A stretch of DNA of 44,509 nt from a virus: the UHGV virus genome UHGV-0169625; one strand, written 5' to 3'. Numbering within the stretch: position 1 is the first letter of the stretch; each line of letters opens with the position of its first letter. Below, in pieces: positions 24,947-31,942 of the stretch. Position numbers and translations under genes: made by a program. The notes below the pieces were generated by a model, which was given only the letters and a program-made list of their open reading frames with translations, did not search any database and was not told where the DNA came from.

Positions 24947-25359
24947 TGGGCTACTTTGAGGACTTAACCAAAGCGTTTGATGTGCCGTTGGTAGCCTTCG
25001 GGAACGCAAACGGCATCAAGGTTGCGCTTGAAAACATCGACGCGCCGACGTCAACCGATACGCCGTATCTGGCGAGTTACATGTTGCTGGCAGATACGGA
25101 ACAGGCGGATTTGTTCTTCACCGAGCAACGCTCTGGTATCTATCAGGTCGACATTAACTACGCATCGGTGAAAGGTAGCGCGCCAATCAATAAAATGGCA
25201 GACTTACTTAACACGGCGTTTAAAGCAGGTAAGTCATTTTCACGTAACGACATCTGCGCCGAGGTTCAATCGGTTAGCCTGGGGCCGCTGATTGTAGAAA
25301 ACGGATGGGCCAAAAGACCATTGTCAATTAACTTTATTACATTCACCAAGAGGCTGTGA
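24946..25359 (+). CDS. tail terminator-like protein (putative)
   Basis: 137 aa, coupled start, immediately upstream of major tail protein; positional. Confidence 0.35.
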   Translation: MGYFEDLTKAFDVPLVAFGNANGIKVALENIDAPTSTDTPYLASYMLLADTEQADLFFTEQRSGIYQVDINYASVKGSAPINKMADLLNTAFKAGKSFSRNDICAEVQSVSLGPLIVENGWAKRPLSINFITFTKRL

Positions 25360-25361
25360 AT

Positions 25362-26528
25362 ATGGCTACAACTCCTTTTAAGGGCGCGACTACCGCGCAA
25401 TTCTATGTGGCGGAAGTCACCCCGGGCGTAACACCGGCTAACCCTGTCTGGTCGCCGTTGCGTAACACTGGCGGTGTTCCTGCTATCACCCGCGACACGC
25501 TGACCTCCAACGAACTGGACGGCAGCCGTGAAACTACATCCATCCGCACCGGTAACAAACAGGTTAGCGGTGAATACGCGATCGAGCTTAGCTCGAAAAG
25601 CCAGGATGACTGGCTGGCTGGTGCTTTAGGCTCTACGTGGCAATCCGGTGTTTCCCTGTCCAGTCTGTCGATTACCGTCGCACCCGCGGGCAAGACGTTC
25701 ACACGCGCTACCGGCAGTTTTATCGCTGACGGAGTTGGGGTAGGCGACCTGATTGCATTTACCGATTTAACAGGCGATAACGCAAAACCATTTATTGTTA
25801 CTGCAGTAACGGCTACGGTTGTTACTGGTGCGGGCATCCAACACACCCTGACCACCGAGACAAAAACTAGTAAGGCTAAAACCGGCGACACGCTGGAAAC
25901 CGGTAACACGTGTAAGACGTTCTCTATCCTTACCTGGTACAAAGGCCAGTGCGGCGGTACTGACGCGTACACGTTAACCAAAGGCGTGGAAGTTTCTGGT
26001 TTTACCATCGAACAGGCTGTTAACGCGATGGTAACTGGCAGTTTCCCGTTCATCGGGCGCAGCCAGGAGATTCTCGCCACGCCGCCGACAGGTTCTGATT
26101 TCTCCTCTGTCACGTTTGGTGACGAGCCGTTCTCTTCGGTTGACGTTTCTGTGTTCGATGGCTCAACACCGTTGCGCTGCGACAGCCTGACCATCACCAA
26201 CGATAACAGCGCGTCCGCTCAGTTCGAACTCGGTAATACTAACGTAGCGTTTATTGAGCGTAGCCGCGCGGCTAACACCTTCTCCATCTCCGGCAAGCTG
26301 TACGACATGGCTATGATTCAGAAGTTTATCAACGAACAACAGGTAGAGATTAACTCTATTCTGGCGGGGGTAAACGGGGCTATGTCTTTCAGTCTGAAAC
26401 GTGCAGAACTCACGGCGGTTACGCCAGAGATTGGCGGGCCTGAGTCAATCACTCAGAGCATAGAAGGACAGTCCACAGGCAATCAATACCAGTCGTCTAT
26501 TGTTATCCAGCGTATCACCTACGCATAA
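25362..26528 (+). CDS. major tail (tube) protein (putative)
   Basis: start trimmed to ATG 25362 (AAGAGG SD); Thr/Gly/Ser-rich 389 aa; followed by strong terminator. Confidence 0.5.
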   Translation: MATTPFKGATTAQFYVAEVTPGVTPANPVWSPLRNTGGVPAITRDTLTSNELDGSRETTSIRTGNKQVSGEYAIELSSKSQDDWLAGALGSTWQSGVSLSSLSITVAPAGKTFTRATGSFIADGVGVGDLIAFTDLTGDNAKPFIVTAVTATVVTGAGIQHTLTTETKTSKAKTGDTLETGNTCKTFSILTWYKGQCGGTDAYTLTKGVEVSGFTIEQAVNAMVTGSFPFIGRSQEILATPPTGSDFSSVTFGDEPFSSVDVSVFDGSTPLRCDSLTITNDNSASAQFELGNTNVAFIERSRAANTFSISGKLYDMAMIQKFINEQQVEINSILAGVNGAMSFSLKRAELTAVTPEIGGPESITQSIEGQSTGNQYQSSIVIQRITYA

Positions 26529-26560: not shown

Positions 26561-26737
26561 TCACTCACTTTTGAATGGCATTTCGTAGAAGTTAGTTAAC
26601 TGCCCCCGGTCACTCCGTTCTGTCATTTCTTTCGAAGCCTCTTCCTTACTACCCACGGCGTAAATATCTACCCACTCGTCCCATTCTTTGTCGTATACGC
26701 GGATTACGTATATTGTTTTCATTACATTCTTACTCAT
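26561..26737 (-). CDS. hypothetical small protein (58 aa), antisense island
   Basis: ATG ORF on minus strand; start overlaps stop of 26730..26936 gene. Confidence 0.35.
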   Translation of the reverse strand: MSKNVMKTIYVIRVYDKEWDEWVDIYAVGSKEEASKEMTERSDRGQLTNFYEMPFKSE

Positions 26738-26936
26738 CAATATTACTCCTGTACTCCCGTAACTTCTCCAGACTTTCTATTGCTTCTGCTAAGTCGGTTC
26801 CTGTGTCTTTGTGTCCGCGAAGGCCCATACACAACAGCTTCTTCAATGCGTGCTGTAGCGCCGGGTCGCGTATATCGAAGGCGCGTAGCACATCATAAAC
26901 GTCTACTGTCATAGTGCTGCCGTGAGTGTTTGTCAT
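26730..26936 (-). CDS. hypothetical protein (68 aa), antisense island
   Basis: start trimmed to first ATG (26936); track shows GTG alternative at 26960. Confidence 0.4.
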   Translation of the reverse strand: MTNTHGSTMTVDVYDVLRAFDIRDPALQHALKKLLCMGLRGHKDTGTDLAEAIESLEKLREYRSNIDE

Positions 26937-26965
26937 TGTGCGGTTGTATTTATTTGTCACTGTTA

Positions 26966-27015
26966 ACTCTCTTAAATCTGGCTATGCCTGACTCTCTTAA
27001 ATCTGGCTATGCCTG
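26966..27015. repeat. perfect 25-bp tandem duplication (2 copies)
   Basis: ACTCTCTTAAATCTGGCTATGCCTG at 26966-26990 and again at 26991-27015; spans the stop codon of gene 26972..27175. Confidence 0.9.
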
Positions 27016-27175
27016 ACTCGTTAATGCTGCCTATTTCAAAGAAGCTGCGATATTTAGGCGAATACATTCTTACGTCGCCGTTCTCTAGGGTGACCCCTTC
27101 ATATACAGCGCCTACTTCGAATCCATTTTTCTCCGCGTACGGACTCACATCGGTGCATTCATACATATCTTTCAT
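26972..27175 (-). CDS. hypothetical protein (67 aa), antisense island
   Basis: track ORF; last 14 codons are encoded inside the tandem duplication. Confidence 0.4.
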   Translation of the reverse strand: MKDMYECTDVSPYAEKNGFEVGAVYEGVTLENGDVRMYSPKYRSFFEIGSINESGIARFKRVRHSQI

Positions 27176-28302
27176 CCCAGCATCTCCGGTGAAATAGTTA
27201 AACGTGCGACCTCGCCATATTCGGCACTATAGGTAATTACATTTGCGCTACGGCCTGACATCCATCCACCGCGCGAGGCGTAGGCGTCTTTAGCCGCCAG
27301 GGTGCGGTGTTGCTCAACAATCATGTTACGGCTTTCCACAATCTTCTGATGGTGGAGGTGGCCTACGTGGGCGTAGCTGTAAACGCTTTCGCCAAATGCT
27401 TTGCGGAACTTGGCAATCATAACCGGTTCGATAGCGTCGAATCGTGCCTTATGCCCGTGGTGAAAGAACAGCGTCGTTTTGCCGTGTTGCACCATCTTGT
27501 AAACATCTGGCGACGTATCGACGAACACACGAGGCTCATTGTCGTACAGCGTACTAAACATCTCAGCTAACCAAATCATTCCGCTTTCGTCGTGGTTTCC
27601 TTGCACGATAAGCAAGCGAACATTTTTATGCTTAACCAGCGCCATACCGACAACACGGCGGACCATACGAATCATGTAGCGGACAAGTTTCTGATAGCGA
27701 GTGTCCGCATCAAGGGCGTGACCGCTTGCAGGCGTAACGGCAACCAGACTGTCGAAGTGCGCGAAGTCGCCCAGCAGGTTAATAACTCCAGTTCCTGCAT
27801 CCGGCGCTTTCTGGAACGCCGCATCGAACCAGCGAGAAAACAGGTCTTCCGCAATCTTCATATCCCAGTCGTCGCCACTCTCGTCGGCCCAGGCCAGCAT
27901 ACCAAGATGGAAATCAGATACAGTGTAAAGATTGAGTAGTTTATCGTCACGTTTGGTGCGAACGGCTTTAACTGGTACAACGGGAGTAATCTCCGACTTC
28001 ATGCCTTCGATTACGGCTTTCATCAACTCGACCTGACGTTCAGCGTCAGTGTCTGTCTTAACCCATTGCAACTTAGTGTTGCCGAACTCGTCCACAAGCG
28101 ACGACGTTCCTTTAATCTTGTAGCCGTCCGGGACAAGATGGCTAACGTCACGACCGTGACCTACGCCTTTCTTCGCCAGCTTCGCTTTACGGATACGAAT
28201 AACGCGGTCTGAGATGCCGTATTTACGGGCGATGTCTACATTCTTCATCCCGGCGTTCAATTCTTCCTGTAACTGTTCGTCGGTTATTTTCTTCTGGGCC
28301 AT
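27172..28302 (-). CDS. HTH domain fused to calcineurin-like metallophosphoesterase
   Basis: 376 aa; N-terminal NVDIARKYGISDRVIRIRK (HTH); metallophosphatase motif series SDFHLG (D-x-H), GDFAHFD, GNHDE, HHGH, GHLHH. Confidence 0.6.
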   Translation of the reverse strand: MAQKKITDEQLQEELNAGMKNVDIARKYGISDRVIRIRKAKLAKKGVGHGRDVSHLVPDGYKIKGTSSLVDEFGNTKLQWVKTDTDAERQVELMKAVIEGMKSEITPVVPVKAVRTKRDDKLLNLYTVSDFHLGMLAWADESGDDWDMKIAEDLFSRWFDAAFQKAPDAGTGVINLLGDFAHFDSLVAVTPASGHALDADTRYQKLVRYMIRMVRRVVGMALVKHKNVRLLIVQGNHDESGMIWLAEMFSTLYDNEPRVFVDTSPDVYKMVQHGKTTLFFHHGHKARFDAIEPVMIAKFRKAFGESVYSYAHVGHLHHQKIVESRNMIVEQHRTLAAKDAYASRGGWMSGRSANVITYSAEYGEVARLTISPEMLG

Positions 28303-28367
28303 GCTTACTTCCTCGTGTTTAGGATTTGTCCTATTTAACCACAGTGGATTCCTTTAAATAAAGGCAA

Positions 28368-28694
28368 CTATTTACTTTCTGCGCCTATTGCCCATCCAGT
28401 CATTACCATTTGCAGACGGGTGGCTGTCAGTAGGCTGTAAAACGCGTCTCCGTTTTTCTCTACCGAACGTATTACCGTGTATGTTACGGCTTGCGGAGGC
28501 AGGCCCGATTTACCAACCTCTACGGCGGACTCGCACTCGCGAACTGTAGAGTCCTTAAATGCCTTTACAAGAGTAGGGTTGGCTTTCTCAAGCACACCAG
28601 AAGTCATAAGAACAGATTCACTAAATACCTGTTCGCACGGGGACCCAAAAGTAGCAAAAGACATAAACCCCAGAGCTAGTACTAATTTACGCAT
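28368..28694 (-). CDS. exported protein with signal peptide, first gene of antisense island
   Basis: 108 aa; MRKLVLALGFMSFATFG signal peptide; GAGGAA SD; about 22 nt downstream of leftward promoter. Confidence 0.5.
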   Translation of the reverse strand: MRKLVLALGFMSFATFGSPCEQVFSESVLMTSGVLEKANPTLVKAFKDSTVRECESAVEVGKSGLPPQAVTYTVIRSVEKNGDAFYSLLTATRLQMVMTGWAIGAESK

Positions 28695-28712
28695 AATTAT
28701 TTCCTCGGTAAG

Positions 28713-28751
28713 TTACAAGTGAATAGTACCCTATTATATTGGGGTGCGCAA
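28713..28751. promoter_or_regulatory. overlapping divergent promoters sharing one palindromic operator
   Basis: leftward: TTGCGC (28751-28746), 17 nt, TACTAT (28728-28723); rightward: TTACAA (28713-28718), 16 nt, TATATT (28735-28740); 28720-28737 is the inverted copy of ATAATAG-N4-CTATTCA. Confidence 0.45.
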
Positions 28752-28858: not shown

Positions 28859-29275
28859 ATGAAACTTTCTGATTTTTATTTTGCCGACCGCCACGCTACT
28901 GGCACTAAAATGCCTATCCTTCTGCCGAGTGGTAAAGACTCCGGTGAATGGCTGCAGGTCATTGGCCCCGATTGTGATGCGGGTGTTCGTGCAGGCCGCG
29001 CCTACACAACGGCAATTCGACGCCTTACGGAAGAACTTGCGCCATTAGATAAAGAGTGTGAGGCGCTGAATAACTGGGCGCGCTATAACGATGAGAAGGG
29101 CTGGCGGGTGATGGACCTGAACAAGCAGCTCGCTGTCGAAATCGTCACCGGTTGGTCATTCGACGAGCCGTTCAGCAAAGAGGCGCTGGCTAACCTGTTC
29201 GACCAGTACAGCGGACTGGCAGAAGCCGTGGTTAAACACCACACCGATAGCCGCGAGAAACTCTCGGAAAAGTAA
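28859..29275 (+). CDS. tail assembly chaperone (G-like)
   Basis: 138 aa, AAAGGA SD, immediately upstream of tape measure; -1 frame stays open from 29251 to 29637. Confidence 0.6.
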   Translation: MKLSDFYFADRHATGTKMPILLPSGKDSGEWLQVIGPDCDAGVRAGRAYTTAIRRLTEELAPLDKECEALNNWARYNDEKGWRVMDLNKQLAVEIVTGWSFDEPFSKEALANLFDQYSGLAEAVVKHHTDSREKLSEK

Positions 29276-29637
29276 AAGCGCTGTATGAATTTGCGCAATG
29301 GTGCTTTGTCGACCGCCACAAACGTAAGCAATTCGACGACATCGCGGCAGGCCACCAGGCGGCTTTGATTGCAATGGGCGTGATTAAAGAACCGCAGATG
29401 AAAGAAGCGACGGGGCCAGAATGCCCCGTTTCTCTTATCGACGCGTTCGAGAAATACCGTGCCATTAAATTCCTACAGCGCGAAACAGATGATACTATCG
29501 TTATAATCCCGCGCGATGCGCTCAAATGGCAAGATTTGGTAGCGTTTCGTGATGTCGCCGGTTACGGCATAAGTTTGTTCGAGGCCGAGGTTATCATGGG
29601 CTTAGACGGAATATTTGAGGGCAGAGAAGATGGCTGA
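28859..29637 (+). CDS. predicted tail assembly chaperone -1 frameshift fusion (GT-like)
   Basis: -1 frame has its last stop at 29248-29250 and is open to 29637; candidate shift site CGGAAAAGTAA at the last sense codons of the zero frame; downstream ORF has only a TTG start. Confidence 0.4.
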
Positions 29638-31942
29638 TACGGCTTCCCTAATTGCCAGAGTAAAAACAGAAGGTGCTGACGTAGCTGCCAAACAGCTTGA
29701 CGCTATGGCGTCGTCTGCAGACCGCGCGGATACCGCGGTAAACAAGCTGACTCCGGACGTTAATAAAGTAAACTCCACCACGTCTAAAGCGGCCTCCGAC
29801 GGTTTCGCTAAGTTCCGTAACGCCGCAGGGCAGGTTGGCTTCCAGGTGCAGGACATGGTGGTCCAGTTGCAATCCGGCACGTCTGCATTCGTCGCGATAG
29901 GGCAGCAAGGTTCGCAGCTTGCCGGTGCTTTCGGTCCAGGTGGCGCGGTGCTAGGTGCGGTAATAGCGCTAGCGTCGGCGGTTGGTGGCGTTCTTTACAA
30001 ATCATTAACTGAGGCTGAGGGTAGCTCAAAAGACCTGGAAGCCGCACAGAAACAGTTAAAGGACACCTTCCAACAAACGGCATCTGGCTCTCTTGAATTG
30101 ACAGATGGTCTTATCCAGCTTACCCAAATCAGCAGAGAAGCGGCGGAGACTCAGCTTGCTCTGGCTAAGGCTAACGCGGACCTTATTGCACAGCAAACAG
30201 CTAAAGCCGTTCGTGAGGACGCAGAGTCGTGGGAAACGTGGAAGGCCTCCACGACATCGGCGATCAGCCAGTATGATGCGCTGGTCTCTAAGGGCGCCGA
30301 TGTAGGCGACACATTAGAAAAACTAGGCGGCACTTACGAGGGTAACATCGTAGGCGTCAACATGCTGGCGCAGAATATCGCGGAGCTTAGCAGTAAGTTC
30401 GGGGTTAACCGTGACCAGGCGCTGGAGATGATAGCGGCGCAGAGTGCGTTTAACAAAGAACCAACCGCCGAGAATGCCCGTCGTATCGCCGATGTGTTTA
30501 CCGACTGGCTAGGTAATACAAAACAGTTGAACCCGGAACTTATCCGCCTGACCGACAACGCCAACAAGAACGCCACGGCACTGGAGAACGCGGAGAAGTC
30601 AGCAAACGCGGCGGCAGAGGCCCAAAAGAATCTCGGTCGTAACGTCAACTCGACCACGCAGAGGTTCCAGGAACAGAACGAAGCTATCGTCAAAAACCAG
30701 CAAATTGCCATCTTAAGTGACCGTGAGCGCGTCCGGGCGCAAGCTGAACTGGATAAGCAGGCGTTTGCTAAACGTGAAGCTGTCACCAAAGAACAGATAG
30801 CCGCGTATAACGCTGCCCGTGACGCGGAAGCACAGCAAGACATCGCTCGCATCGACGCGACCGAAAAAGCGAAGGCAGACCGCGAGGCTAAATCGAACGA
30901 GAAACGTCTGGCGGCACAAGCCAAACGCGAAGAAACTGCAGCGCAACGCCAGAAGAAAGCCGCGGAAGATTTCCTCGCTACGGTCGACCGAACAACGGGG
31001 GATGAAATTTCTCGTATCACAGCGGCAGAAGAGCAGAAACTGGCGAAACTTGAAGAGTTCAACCGCGCCGGAACAATAAGTCAGCAGCAGTACGAAAACG
31101 CCAAAACGCAGATTATGCTCACCGCCGAGCAGGCCCGACAGGAAGAACTGGATAAGAAAAGAAAAGAAGCCCAGGAAAAGCAGCAGAAAGGTGACGACTT
31201 CATGGCTCAGATTATGGGCCAGAACGCCGCTGAGCTTGAGCTTCTCGACATCCAGGAACAGCAGAAACTGGCGGTCGCAGATAAGTACCGTGAGCAAGGG
31301 CTTATTAGTGAGAAGCAGTATCAGGCCGCGCTTAACGCCATCAACGAGCAATACGCAACCAAGCGTGCCGACGCAACGGCAACCGCCTTCGGTAACATGG
31401 CCTCAAACATCGGGTCTGCGTTGGGTGAGGCTTCTGGCGCGTACAAGGCATTCGCTATCGTACAGGCCACCATAGCCACGTACACCGCAGCTATCGAGGC
31501 GTACAAGTCCACGGCGGCTATCCCCGTAGTCGGCCCGTTCCTGGCCCCTGTAGCCGCTGCCGCTGCCGTTGGGGCGGGTATGGCGCAGATTTCCGCTATC
31601 AGGTCCGCGCGTGAGCAGGGCGGTCAGTTGTCCGCAGGGCAGGCTTCCACCATCGCAGAACGTGGTAAACCAGAAGTTATCATGCCCGCTGGCGCATCGC
31701 GTGTTCGCACCGCACAGCAGATGAAGGAAATTATGGGCCAAAACGGGTCTTCTTCCGGCCCATCTAATGTTACCATCGTAAATAACACATCGAGTCAGAT
31801 TGGCAACGTATCCACTGAGCAAGATGATGAAGGCCGTTTGCGTATCATCATCGAAGAGCAAGTGGCGGCCTCTTTGCAGAACAGCAACAGTAAGATTAGC
31901 AAGGCTCGCAAGGCCACAAGAAACGCGCCGGGGTTCAAGTAA
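29630..31942 (+). CDS. tail tape measure protein
   Basis: about 770 aa, Ala/Gln/Glu/Lys-rich coiled coil with C-terminal hydrophobic segment; start trimmed to ATG 29630. Confidence 0.85.
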   Translation: MADTASLIARVKTEGADVAAKQLDAMASSADRADTAVNKLTPDVNKVNSTTSKAASDGFAKFRNAAGQVGFQVQDMVVQLQSGTSAFVAIGQQGSQLAGAFGPGGAVLGAVIALASAVGGVLYKSLTEAEGSSKDLEAAQKQLKDTFQQTASGSLELTDGLIQLTQISREAAETQLALAKANADLIAQQTAKAVREDAESWETWKASTTSAISQYDALVSKGADVGDTLEKLGGTYEGNIVGVNMLAQNIAELSSKFGVNRDQALEMIAAQSAFNKEPTAENARRIADVFTDWLGNTKQLNPELIRLTDNANKNATALENAEKSANAAAEAQKNLGRNVNSTTQRFQEQNEAIVKNQQIAILSDRERVRAQAELDKQAFAKREAVTKEQIAAYNAARDAEAQQDIARIDATEKAKADREAKSNEKRLAAQAKREETAAQRQKKAAEDFLATVDRTTGDEISRITAAEEQKLAKLEEFNRAGTISQQQYENAKTQIMLTAEQARQEELDKKRKEAQEKQQKGDDFMAQIMGQNAAELELLDIQEQQKLAVADKYREQGLISEKQYQAALNAINEQYATKRADATATAFGNMASNIGSALGEASGAYKAFAIVQATIATYTAAIEAYKSTAAIPVVGPFLAPVAAAAAVGAGMAQISAIRSAREQGGQLSAGQASTIAERGKPEVIMPAGASRVRTAQQMKEIMGQNGSSSGPSNVTIVNNTSSQIGNVSTEQDDEGRLRIIIEEQVAASLQNSNSKISKARKATRNAPGFK

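Follow-up and report, generated by a model that had tools for sequence, protein, structure and literature searches.

How the virus genome UHGV-0169625 could make a long form of its tail assembly chaperone is the question raised by two overlapping reading frames in the 44,509-nucleotide (nt) stretch analysed here, which is referred to as the window. The source phage is a Kagunavirus-like (Guernseyvirinae) Escherichia coli siphophage. The first frame, a G-like tail assembly chaperone of 138 amino acids (aa), occupies 28859-29275 (+ strand) and was identified from the list of open reading frames (ORFs), its translation, Pfam and PHROG; the 1.1 kb surrounding its stop codon matched 117 phage records at 80-96% identity. 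The second, termed T, overlaps its 3′ end in the -1 frame. A programmed -1 frameshift that joins G to the T domain is the best-supported reading of this pair. With a probability of roughly three in four, we propose that tRNA-Lys slips on the tetramer A_AAG at the end of G to give a minor 259-aa GT product, that a long-range RNA helix probably promotes this slip, and that G and GT have lambda-like roles. Computation shows the reading frames, the family assignments, a tetramer and stop that are conserved, and a helix supported by covariation.

Two overlapping frames ahead of the tape measure gene

The 3′ end of G reads TCG GAA AAG TAA, with the stop TAA at 29273-29275. A TAG at 29248-29250 closes the -1 frame, which is open from 29251 and runs for 128 codons to a TGA at 29635-29637; the +1 frame has many stops. 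Given the upstream TAG, the shift must fall in the overlap between G and the -1 frame, 29251-29272 (+ strand). In several relatives this overlap is down to 16 nt, which confines the shift to the last five codons of G. If AAG is read and translation continues one base back, from 29272, the product combines G (28859-29272) with the T part (29272-29637, + strand) and has 259 aa. The T part comprises 121 codons, running from VKALYEF to GREDG before the TGA, and is supported by translation, Pfam, PHROG and its substitution pattern. The open -1 frame, the final zero-frame codons and a fusion of about 259 aa had been read alike in a preliminary description of the window.

That description had also proposed a G/GT arrangement upstream of a tape measure gene, which several lines of evidence uphold. 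The ORF pair sits between the tail tube and tape measure genes, with the second ORF overlapping the first in the -1 frame, and both proteins belong to chaperone families: G to Pfam Phage_TAC_4 (E=1e-8, 35.9 bits, cutoff 21.1) and T to Phage_TAC_18 (E=5e-17, 62.2 bits, cutoff 27). PHROG 15027, annotated as tail assembly chaperone, is a single profile of 259 positions, of which G covers positions 1-138 (E=2.5e-65) and T positions 139-259. Moreover, a joined coding sequence (CDS) of 779 nt is annotated at the same place in the RefSeq record of K1H (ORF19A/19B) and in phage fFiEco02, where it is labelled “frameshift product”.

Relatives were compared using 50 IMG/VR loci and 34 metagenome loci, which reduced to 20 lineages below 90% nucleotide identity, with G protein identity down to 44%. 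The codon-column and 6-mer tests used 13 lineages, and the lineages are mutually related. The arrangement recurs well beyond what chance would give. The junction is kept in 20 of 20 lineages, with the -1 frame running ~120 codons past the G stop. A tblastn search with the 259-aa fusion matched 513 phage records, 489 of which have one place covering at least 80% of the query; the full-length matches listed all fall into two pieces, that is, two frames. The T protein is conserved from its first codons (V-x-A-L-Y...W...FD-I...H). Over the 30 codons ahead of any canonical start, pairwise differences per -1-frame codon position amount to 0.28/0.29/0.57, and this third-position bias argues that the stretch is coding in the -1 frame. 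In-frame starts appear only further on (TTG 29365, ATG 29374, GTG 29380 and ATG 29398). No Shine-Dalgarno (SD)-like sequence precedes any of these four, and no start codon in the -1 frame is conserved among the lineages compared. The downstream ORF had been described as lacking both an ATG and an SD sequence; the lack of an SD stands, whereas ATG codons are in frame at 29374 and 29398.

Further evidence comes from relatives at 29-35% G identity, whose equivalent overlap contains a canonical heptamer: four have T_TTT_TTC and one has A_AAT_TTT. This suggests that frameshifting is a habit of the family in which the type of site has turned over. The four carriers of T_TTT_TTC (L049, L051, L053 and L088) mostly read CGT TTT TTC (Arg-Phe-Phe), 18-48 nt before the G stop, and A_AAT_TTT is carried by L052; L053 additionally has T_TTG_GGC directly abutting its TAA. 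In none of these five lineages was an A_AAG-stop-GCGCUGU arrangement found.

The proposed A_AAG shift site and its adjacent stop

The preliminary description had named a comparison of the shift site in relatives as a check, and the comparison bears it out: the overlap has a single conserved element, a GNA AAG that runs straight into TAA or TAG (GNA AAG TAR), found in 20/20 lineages. In the window the site is GAA AAG (29267-29272, + strand), in which the tetramer A_AAG (29269-29272) would allow tRNA-Lys to move from AAG (29270-29272) to AAA (29269-29271). The residue encoded by GNA is Glu in 13 lineages, Val in three and Ala in four, with Gly in two sublineages. Its third base is always A, though in this phage GTA, GCA and GGA are minority codons, used at 0.26, 0.19 and 0.08 within their respective families, and the following Lys codon is always AAG (frequency 0.44). 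The slippery sequence conserved across the overlap of all 20 lineages is A_AAG, a Z_ZZN motif with cognate A-site re-pairing, and the site departs from the canonical X_XXY_YYZ in seven of them. As judged from these sequences, the conserved slip unit is the tetramer A_AAG and not the heptamer G_GAA_AAG. The first base of GNA (29267 and its equivalents) is likewise always G although the amino acid varies; re-pairing in the P site accounts for this invariance only in GAA and GGA.

Two slip models had been suggested earlier, a tRNA-Lys slip from AAG to AAA and a slip on the heptamer G_GAA_AAG, one base off the lambda site G_GGA_AAG; the former is favoured here, and the heptamer turned out not to be conserved. 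A tandem slip of two tRNAs on this heptamer draws support from its presence in the source phage and 12 other lineages, where tRNA-Glu could re-pair with GGA through a central G·U pair, and from two sublineages (L042 and L079) that have the exact lambda site, which is highly shift-prone in E. coli (PMC5009743). Nevertheless, the codon is GTA or GCA in 7/20 lineages, so that P-site re-pairing fails, and the base preceding GNA, G in most lineages, is A in L025 and C in L047. Universal retention holds for A_AAG only, and we regard the tandem slip as doubtful; in the lineage of the source phage, partial re-pairing of tRNA-Glu on GGA may add efficiency to the single tRNA-Lys slip.

A stop codon directly follows AAG (AAG TAR) in 20 of 20 lineages, giving a “shifty stop” layout. 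It is TAA or TAG and never TGA, which is avoided although GTG would retain the Val of the -1 frame. The base after the stop is A in 12 lineages and C in eight, and the -1-frame residue at this place varies (K/D/E/A/T/N). A TAA or TAG stop followed by A or C is a weak termination context, and the stop of G may act as one. In the window, TAA (29273-29275) and the next two bases form the 5-nt spacer (29273-29277, + strand) that separates the shift site from the helix described below.

Two other candidate features of the site were rejected. Transcriptional slippage would need a longer A run than the 3-4 nt present (GGTAAAG in some lineages), and an upstream SD-like stimulator of the kind in dnaX or IS911 finds no counterpart, since nothing is conserved in the 60 nt upstream.

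A predicted long-range helix

An invariant GCGCUGU begins 5 nt past AAG, and its partner (A)CAGCGC lies 100-180 nt downstream. In the window, the 5′ arm (GCGCUGUAUGAAUUUG, 29278-29293, + strand) codes for A-L-Y-E-F in the -1 frame and was recognized from its invariant codons and a complement scan, whereas the 3′ arm (UAAAUUCCUACAGCGC, 29466-29481, + strand) codes for K-F-L-Q-R and was defined by duplex energy, pair probability, covariation and RNAalifold. Residues 29474-29481 pair with 29278-29285 and residues 29466-29472 with 29287-29293, with a U·C mismatch at 29286/29473 between the two blocks. The spacer from AAG to the helix is exactly 5 nt (UARNN) in 20/20 lineages, whichever 3′ arm is used, within the ~5-9 nt 3′ of the motif at which tetramer-type sites have a stable structure. 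The pairing extends to 11-16 base pairs in one clade (clade A) and 9-14 positions in the other (clade B).

Both arms stand out from the coding sequence around them. Among 28 conserved columns of at least fourfold degeneracy (13 lineages), three codons are invariant, namely GTA, GCG and CTG. GTA, the first -1 codon, is forced by its overlap with the stop, which leaves GCG and CTG of the 5′ arm as the only other invariant synonymous sites. No 6-mer other than CAGCGC occurs in the T region of 13/13 lineages, and CAGCGC is missing from the G region in 13/13. One clade has it at stop+203, where CAG|CGC encodes Gln-Arg; the other has it at stop+129 in the phase xCA|GCG|Cxx, and the amino acids encoded there vary. 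In addition, an unbiased scan of 340 start positions (-200 to +140) revealed that the 7-mer at stop+5 alone has a downstream complement in 20/20 lineages; background positions reach a median of 2-3 lineages, and never more than three with Watson-Crick pairs only.

Covariation further supports the pairing. In the clade A alignment (23 sequences), 92% of the cells are paired, compared to 26-48% when the partner is slid; double compensatory changes occur at three adjacent pairs, and the covariation score exceeds that of 500/500 shuffles. The metagenome lineages, which were examined after the helix had been hypothesized, all fit. One of the lineages, L078, has GCGUUG/CAACGC where all others have GCGCUG/CAGCGC, a change from C-G to U-A in the core; L063 and L064 hold a U·G intermediate in the core, and in L062 UAC/GUA replaces UAU/AUA (U-A to C-G). 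The non-Watson-Crick cells comprise 18 G·U and one A·C, a ratio that argues for selection on the sense-strand RNA and led us to reject a DNA-level inverted repeat or an antisense RNA.

Structure prediction, which covered nested structures only, agrees with these comparisons. RNAalifold finds the helix unprompted when the whole region is supplied, and its pair probability in a local fold is ~1 in 12 of 13 lineages. In the source phage, the probability is about 1.0 locally and 0.46-0.97 with flanks of up to 1 kb. The duplex has a free energy of -20.4 kcal/mol in the source phage and -16 to -24 kcal/mol across lineages. Two alternative structures were tried and set aside: no consensus emerged for a compact local stimulator, whether hairpin or pseudoknot, in the 60-120 nt next to the site (RNAalifold energy 0.0), and GCGGCGC at +86 (in “AAL” codons) is a possible partner of GCGCUGU in some lineages only and is absent from the source phage. 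A search of Rfam gave only a sub-threshold chance match. The 5′ arm of L047 is paired in the minimum-energy fold with a nearer GCAGUGC (+114) and not with CAGCGC (+129), and two 3′ partners may compete there.

The domain closed by the helix is itself structured. Over its 210 nt, the minimum free energy is -78.1 kcal/mol (z=-3.87 against dinucleotide shuffles), and its ~172-nt interior (29294-29465, + strand) has an RNAalifold consensus with compensatory changes of its own, which includes inner helices and a hairpin at 29409-29430. The inner helices (~29298-29301 with 29457-29460 and 29308-29312 with 29333-29337; RNAalifold, clade A) show their own compensatory or G·U changes; one example of inner-helix pairing, GUCGA/UCGAC, spans Val-Asp and Phe-Asp codons. 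The hairpin resembles a terminator (29409-29440; GACGGGGCC-AGAAU-GCCCCGU followed by UUCUCUUAU) and lies over T-G-P-E-C-P codons of the T ORF. A GC-rich stem of differing sequence with a U-tract is present in most lineages (e.g. L031, L025, L078 and L015), within the loop in clade A and just 3′ of the closing helix in clade B. It may be an attenuator that keeps G well above the tape measure protein (TMP), a stabilizing 3′ hairpin, or a part of the stimulatory fold.

From these computed features we infer the occurrence and efficiency of slippage, its stimulation by the helix, and the roles of the proteins, as follows. Most ribosomes would read GAA AAG and end at TAA to release G (138 aa). In a small fraction, tRNA-Lys would re-pair from AAG to AAA on A_AAG (29269-29272), one base back, and these ribosomes would read GTA AAA GCG CTG and onwards in the -1 frame to 29637, yielding the 259-aa fusion. 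The helix that starts 5 nt past AAG probably promotes the slip, and its arms, ~175 nt apart, would close the structured domain within T. When AAG occupies the A site, the helix would start at about +12 from the codon in the P site, at the entrance of the mRNA channel; a stimulator of -1 slippage during translocation canonically has this geometry. A second slip, in the P site, might be permitted by the stop within the spacer, when AAG has moved there and the slowly decoded stop waits for a release factor. Because zero-frame ribosomes would terminate just before the helix, the T region would rarely be translated and would be free to fold.

Published efficiencies are consistent with this scheme. 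In E. coli, tetramers without a stimulator shift near background (~0.15%), whereas shift-prone tetramers followed by a strong structure after a 5-nt spacer reach 0.26% to 5.6%, with A_AAG well above the others (PMC4066793). Z_ZZN is the minimal -1 site, and at NNA_AAG the efficiency depends on the tRNA of the 5′ codon (PMC5009743; PMC4066793). As A_AAG in E. coli needs a stimulator after a 5-nt spacer to shift at a few percent, the geometry found here fits. By analogy with lambda, whose G:GT ratio is ~30:1 (PMC5009743), shifting of a few percent is of the magnitude to be expected. The same analogy suggests that G would bind and coat the tape measure protein, and that the rarer GT, through a T domain binding the tail tube protein, would tether the former to the latter.

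Slippage might instead arise from A_AAG and the adjacent stop alone, with the helix serving another purpose at the RNA level, such as mRNA stability, a block on spurious internal initiation in a T region that is seldom translated, or, together with the terminator-like hairpin, the ratio of G to TMP transcripts. A slowly decoded A site promotes slippage (PMC5009743), the stop is adjacent and followed by A or C in all lineages, the region also has a conserved terminator-like hairpin, and the 3′ arm differs in position between clades. Against this, A_AAG without a stimulator shifts near background in E. coli, and the start of the helix at 5 nt in every lineage, whichever 3′ arm is used, is needed by a stimulator and by none of the other roles. 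We consider these other roles, taken together, unlikely, and retain the helix as the probable stimulator of the A_AAG slip.

A bolder and, in our estimate, rather improbable extension is that a stimulator with so large a loop makes the shift self-limiting. A shifted ribosome translating the 100-180-nt interior would keep the helix open, and ribosomes following closely behind would meet a bare A_AAG-stop and terminate. If true, this would give a low and evenly spaced GT:G ratio without a finely tuned slippery site, would explain why the 3′ arm moves between clades while staying inside the T ORF, and would provide a phage counterpart of the “traffic control” idea for the distal frameshift elements of plant RNA viruses.

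The helix is absent from the preliminary description, and the 29240-29290 segment proposed there for a reporter excludes the 3′ arm (29466-29481). A short reporter of this kind would probably underestimate or miss frameshifting.

Fusion or separate protein, and comparison with known systems

Several observations weigh against a helix-promoted slip to GT. On the side of the RNA, the helix was derived from the same sequences on which the slid control was run, which biases that control in its favour; the compensatory cells in clade A come mostly from one lineage (L013/L014), and the core in clade B is almost invariant. In the source phage, the U·C mismatch interrupts the helix, and long flanks lower its predicted probability to 0.46-0.8. 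Bacterial stimulators do not usually have a loop of 100-180 nt, and this one encloses the terminator-like hairpin. On the side of the protein, no natural single-ORF fusion of G and T was found among 10 matches, which are separately called T ORFs of 76-118 aa, and the searchable literature yielded no experimental report of the fusion protein in this phage group. Finally, T codon 4 is invariantly CTG, or TTG in L063, L064 and L078.

The last point leads to the most serious rival, termination followed by reinitiation at CUG or UUG, to which we give small odds. After terminating G at TAA, ribosomes would open the helix and initiate again at CUG 29281, six bases downstream, making T as a separate protein and no fusion; the role of the helix would then be to couple the translation of T to that of G. 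The second chaperone gene of Bas71 (L001, 2082-2438) is annotated from exactly the CTG equivalent to 29281 of the window, and 118-aa versions from codon 4 make up PHROG 4557 and several database proteins. In addition, nucleotide constraints fix codons 1-3 of the -1 frame (V, variable, A), and the conservation of the protein is thus compatible with a start at codon 4. However, CUG initiates very poorly in E. coli, and no SD-like sequence lies upstream of it. Reinitiation also leaves unexplained why A_AAG is retained in 20/20 lineages through minority codons for three amino acids, and why distant relatives have canonical slippery heptamers; moreover, the function known from lambda needs G and T physically linked (PMC5009743). 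These points return us to the A_AAG slip. An independent T gene starting at TTG 29365 or ATG 29374, as suggested by a mechanical ORF finder that begins the ORF at this TTG, a Phage_TAC_18 match that starts at the same residue and several database proteins of 87 aa, can be dismissed as very improbable, since neither codon follows an SD sequence, the widespread Met35 (IAMG) is Ile in L016, L018, L028 and L029, the first 60 T codons of L028 hold no ATG, GTG or TTG, and the 30 upstream codons are conserved as protein with third-position-biased substitutions.

Existing annotation reflects this ambiguity. Whereas K1H and fFiEco02 have a joined CDS, Bas71 has two separate chaperone genes, and the second ORF is named hypothetical in many records. 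The proteins in PHROG 4557 and elsewhere (including P0003/P0004) that begin at Leu-4 (CTG or TTG) or Met-35, with 118 or 87 aa, are probably gene-caller artefacts of an unrecognized frameshift. Annotation is thus inconsistent across several hundred Kagunavirus and Jerseyvirus genomes, which have a joined CDS, two “chaperones” or a “hypothetical protein”, and GNA_AAG-stop with GCGCUGU and its downstream complement offers annotators a concrete rule. A search of solved structures gave no homologue below E=0.4. The G/T frameshift itself is not new, as databases already hold it. The novelty lies in the architecture of its signal, A_AAG-stop with a long-range helix, and the helix seems undescribed: on a Guernseyvirinae frameshift signal, the searchable literature gave nothing but the remark (Shashou) that a relative has “no canonical slippery sequence”, and no description of a phage G-T frameshift element of this long-range kind was found there. 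For the recoding field, the locus would represent a natural, phylogenetically supported tetramer-type -1 shift in a phage, with a modelled stimulator helix that closes over 100-180 nt of coding RNA and whose 3′ strand has been relocated in evolution.

The neighbouring genes complete the tail module. The tape measure gene (29630-31942, + strand; 770 aa; PHROG 1538, E=2e-198) begins at ATG 29630, which overlaps the T stop by 8 nt (ATGGCTGA), and GAGGGCAGAGAAG stands ahead of this ATG. Together, these suggest translational coupling or an independent ribosome-binding site within the end of T. Upstream, the tail tube gene occupies 25356-26528 (Phage_tube_2, E=1e-36). Between it and G, a 2.1-kb block of genes on the - strand (26561-28694) splits the tail module and contains a 376-aa metallophosphoesterase/DNA repair exonuclease (PHROG 704) and several small ORFs. 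With this reverse-strand block ahead of G, the G-T-TMP genes must open a new transcription unit, and a promoter-like site is located at 28712-28740 (+ strand).

The source pair belongs to the G/GT family on three grounds: synteny, protein family and a conserved shift site. As in lambda, two overlapping ORFs of the Pfam and PHROG tail-assembly-chaperone families stand immediately ahead of the tape measure gene, a -1 slip of tRNA-Lys on A_AAG is placed close to the end of the first ORF, and the fusion is about twice the length of G. They differ in three respects: lambda has the canonical heptamer G_GGA_AAG, compared to only a tetramer abutting a stop here; a long-range helix follows the site here, whereas a literature search found no stimulator reported for G-T shifts; and a reverse-strand gene block parts the tail tube gene from G.

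The site resembles the NNA_AAG sites of Bacillus subtilis cdd (A_CGA_AAG) and IS1222 (G_CGA_AAG), where a single tRNA-Lys slips without P-site re-pairing and the efficiency depends on the tRNA of the 5′ codon (PMC5009743); this codon is GNA here instead of CGA. A contribution of far 3′ sequence to the signal is shared with T7 gene 10 (>200 nt) and with barley yellow dwarf virus (BYDV), pea enation mosaic virus (PEMV) and red clover necrotic mosaic virus (RCNMV) (PMC5009743). The plant viruses have a kissing interaction of a distal loop with a local stem, whereas the distal sequence here would be the second strand of the site-adjacent stem itself; the T7 effect is unexplained and involves a transcription terminator. 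In IS911, a basal helix shortly past the shift site closes a branched domain (PMC5009743; cited in PMC4066793), similar to the domain predicted here. IS911 itself has the heptamer A_AAA_AAG and is further stimulated by an SD-like sequence upstream; the lineages compared here conserve no SD-like element, and their larger domain has a 3′ arm that changed position between the clades. Altogether, the signal is closest to the IS3 type, with which it shares A_AAG, a 5-nt spacer, an expected reliance on 3′ structure and an expected few-percent level (PMC4066793). Where IS3 has a compact pseudoknot with the zero-frame stop inside it, the source phage has a predicted single helix closing over 100-180 nt of coding sequence, with the stop adjoining the site.

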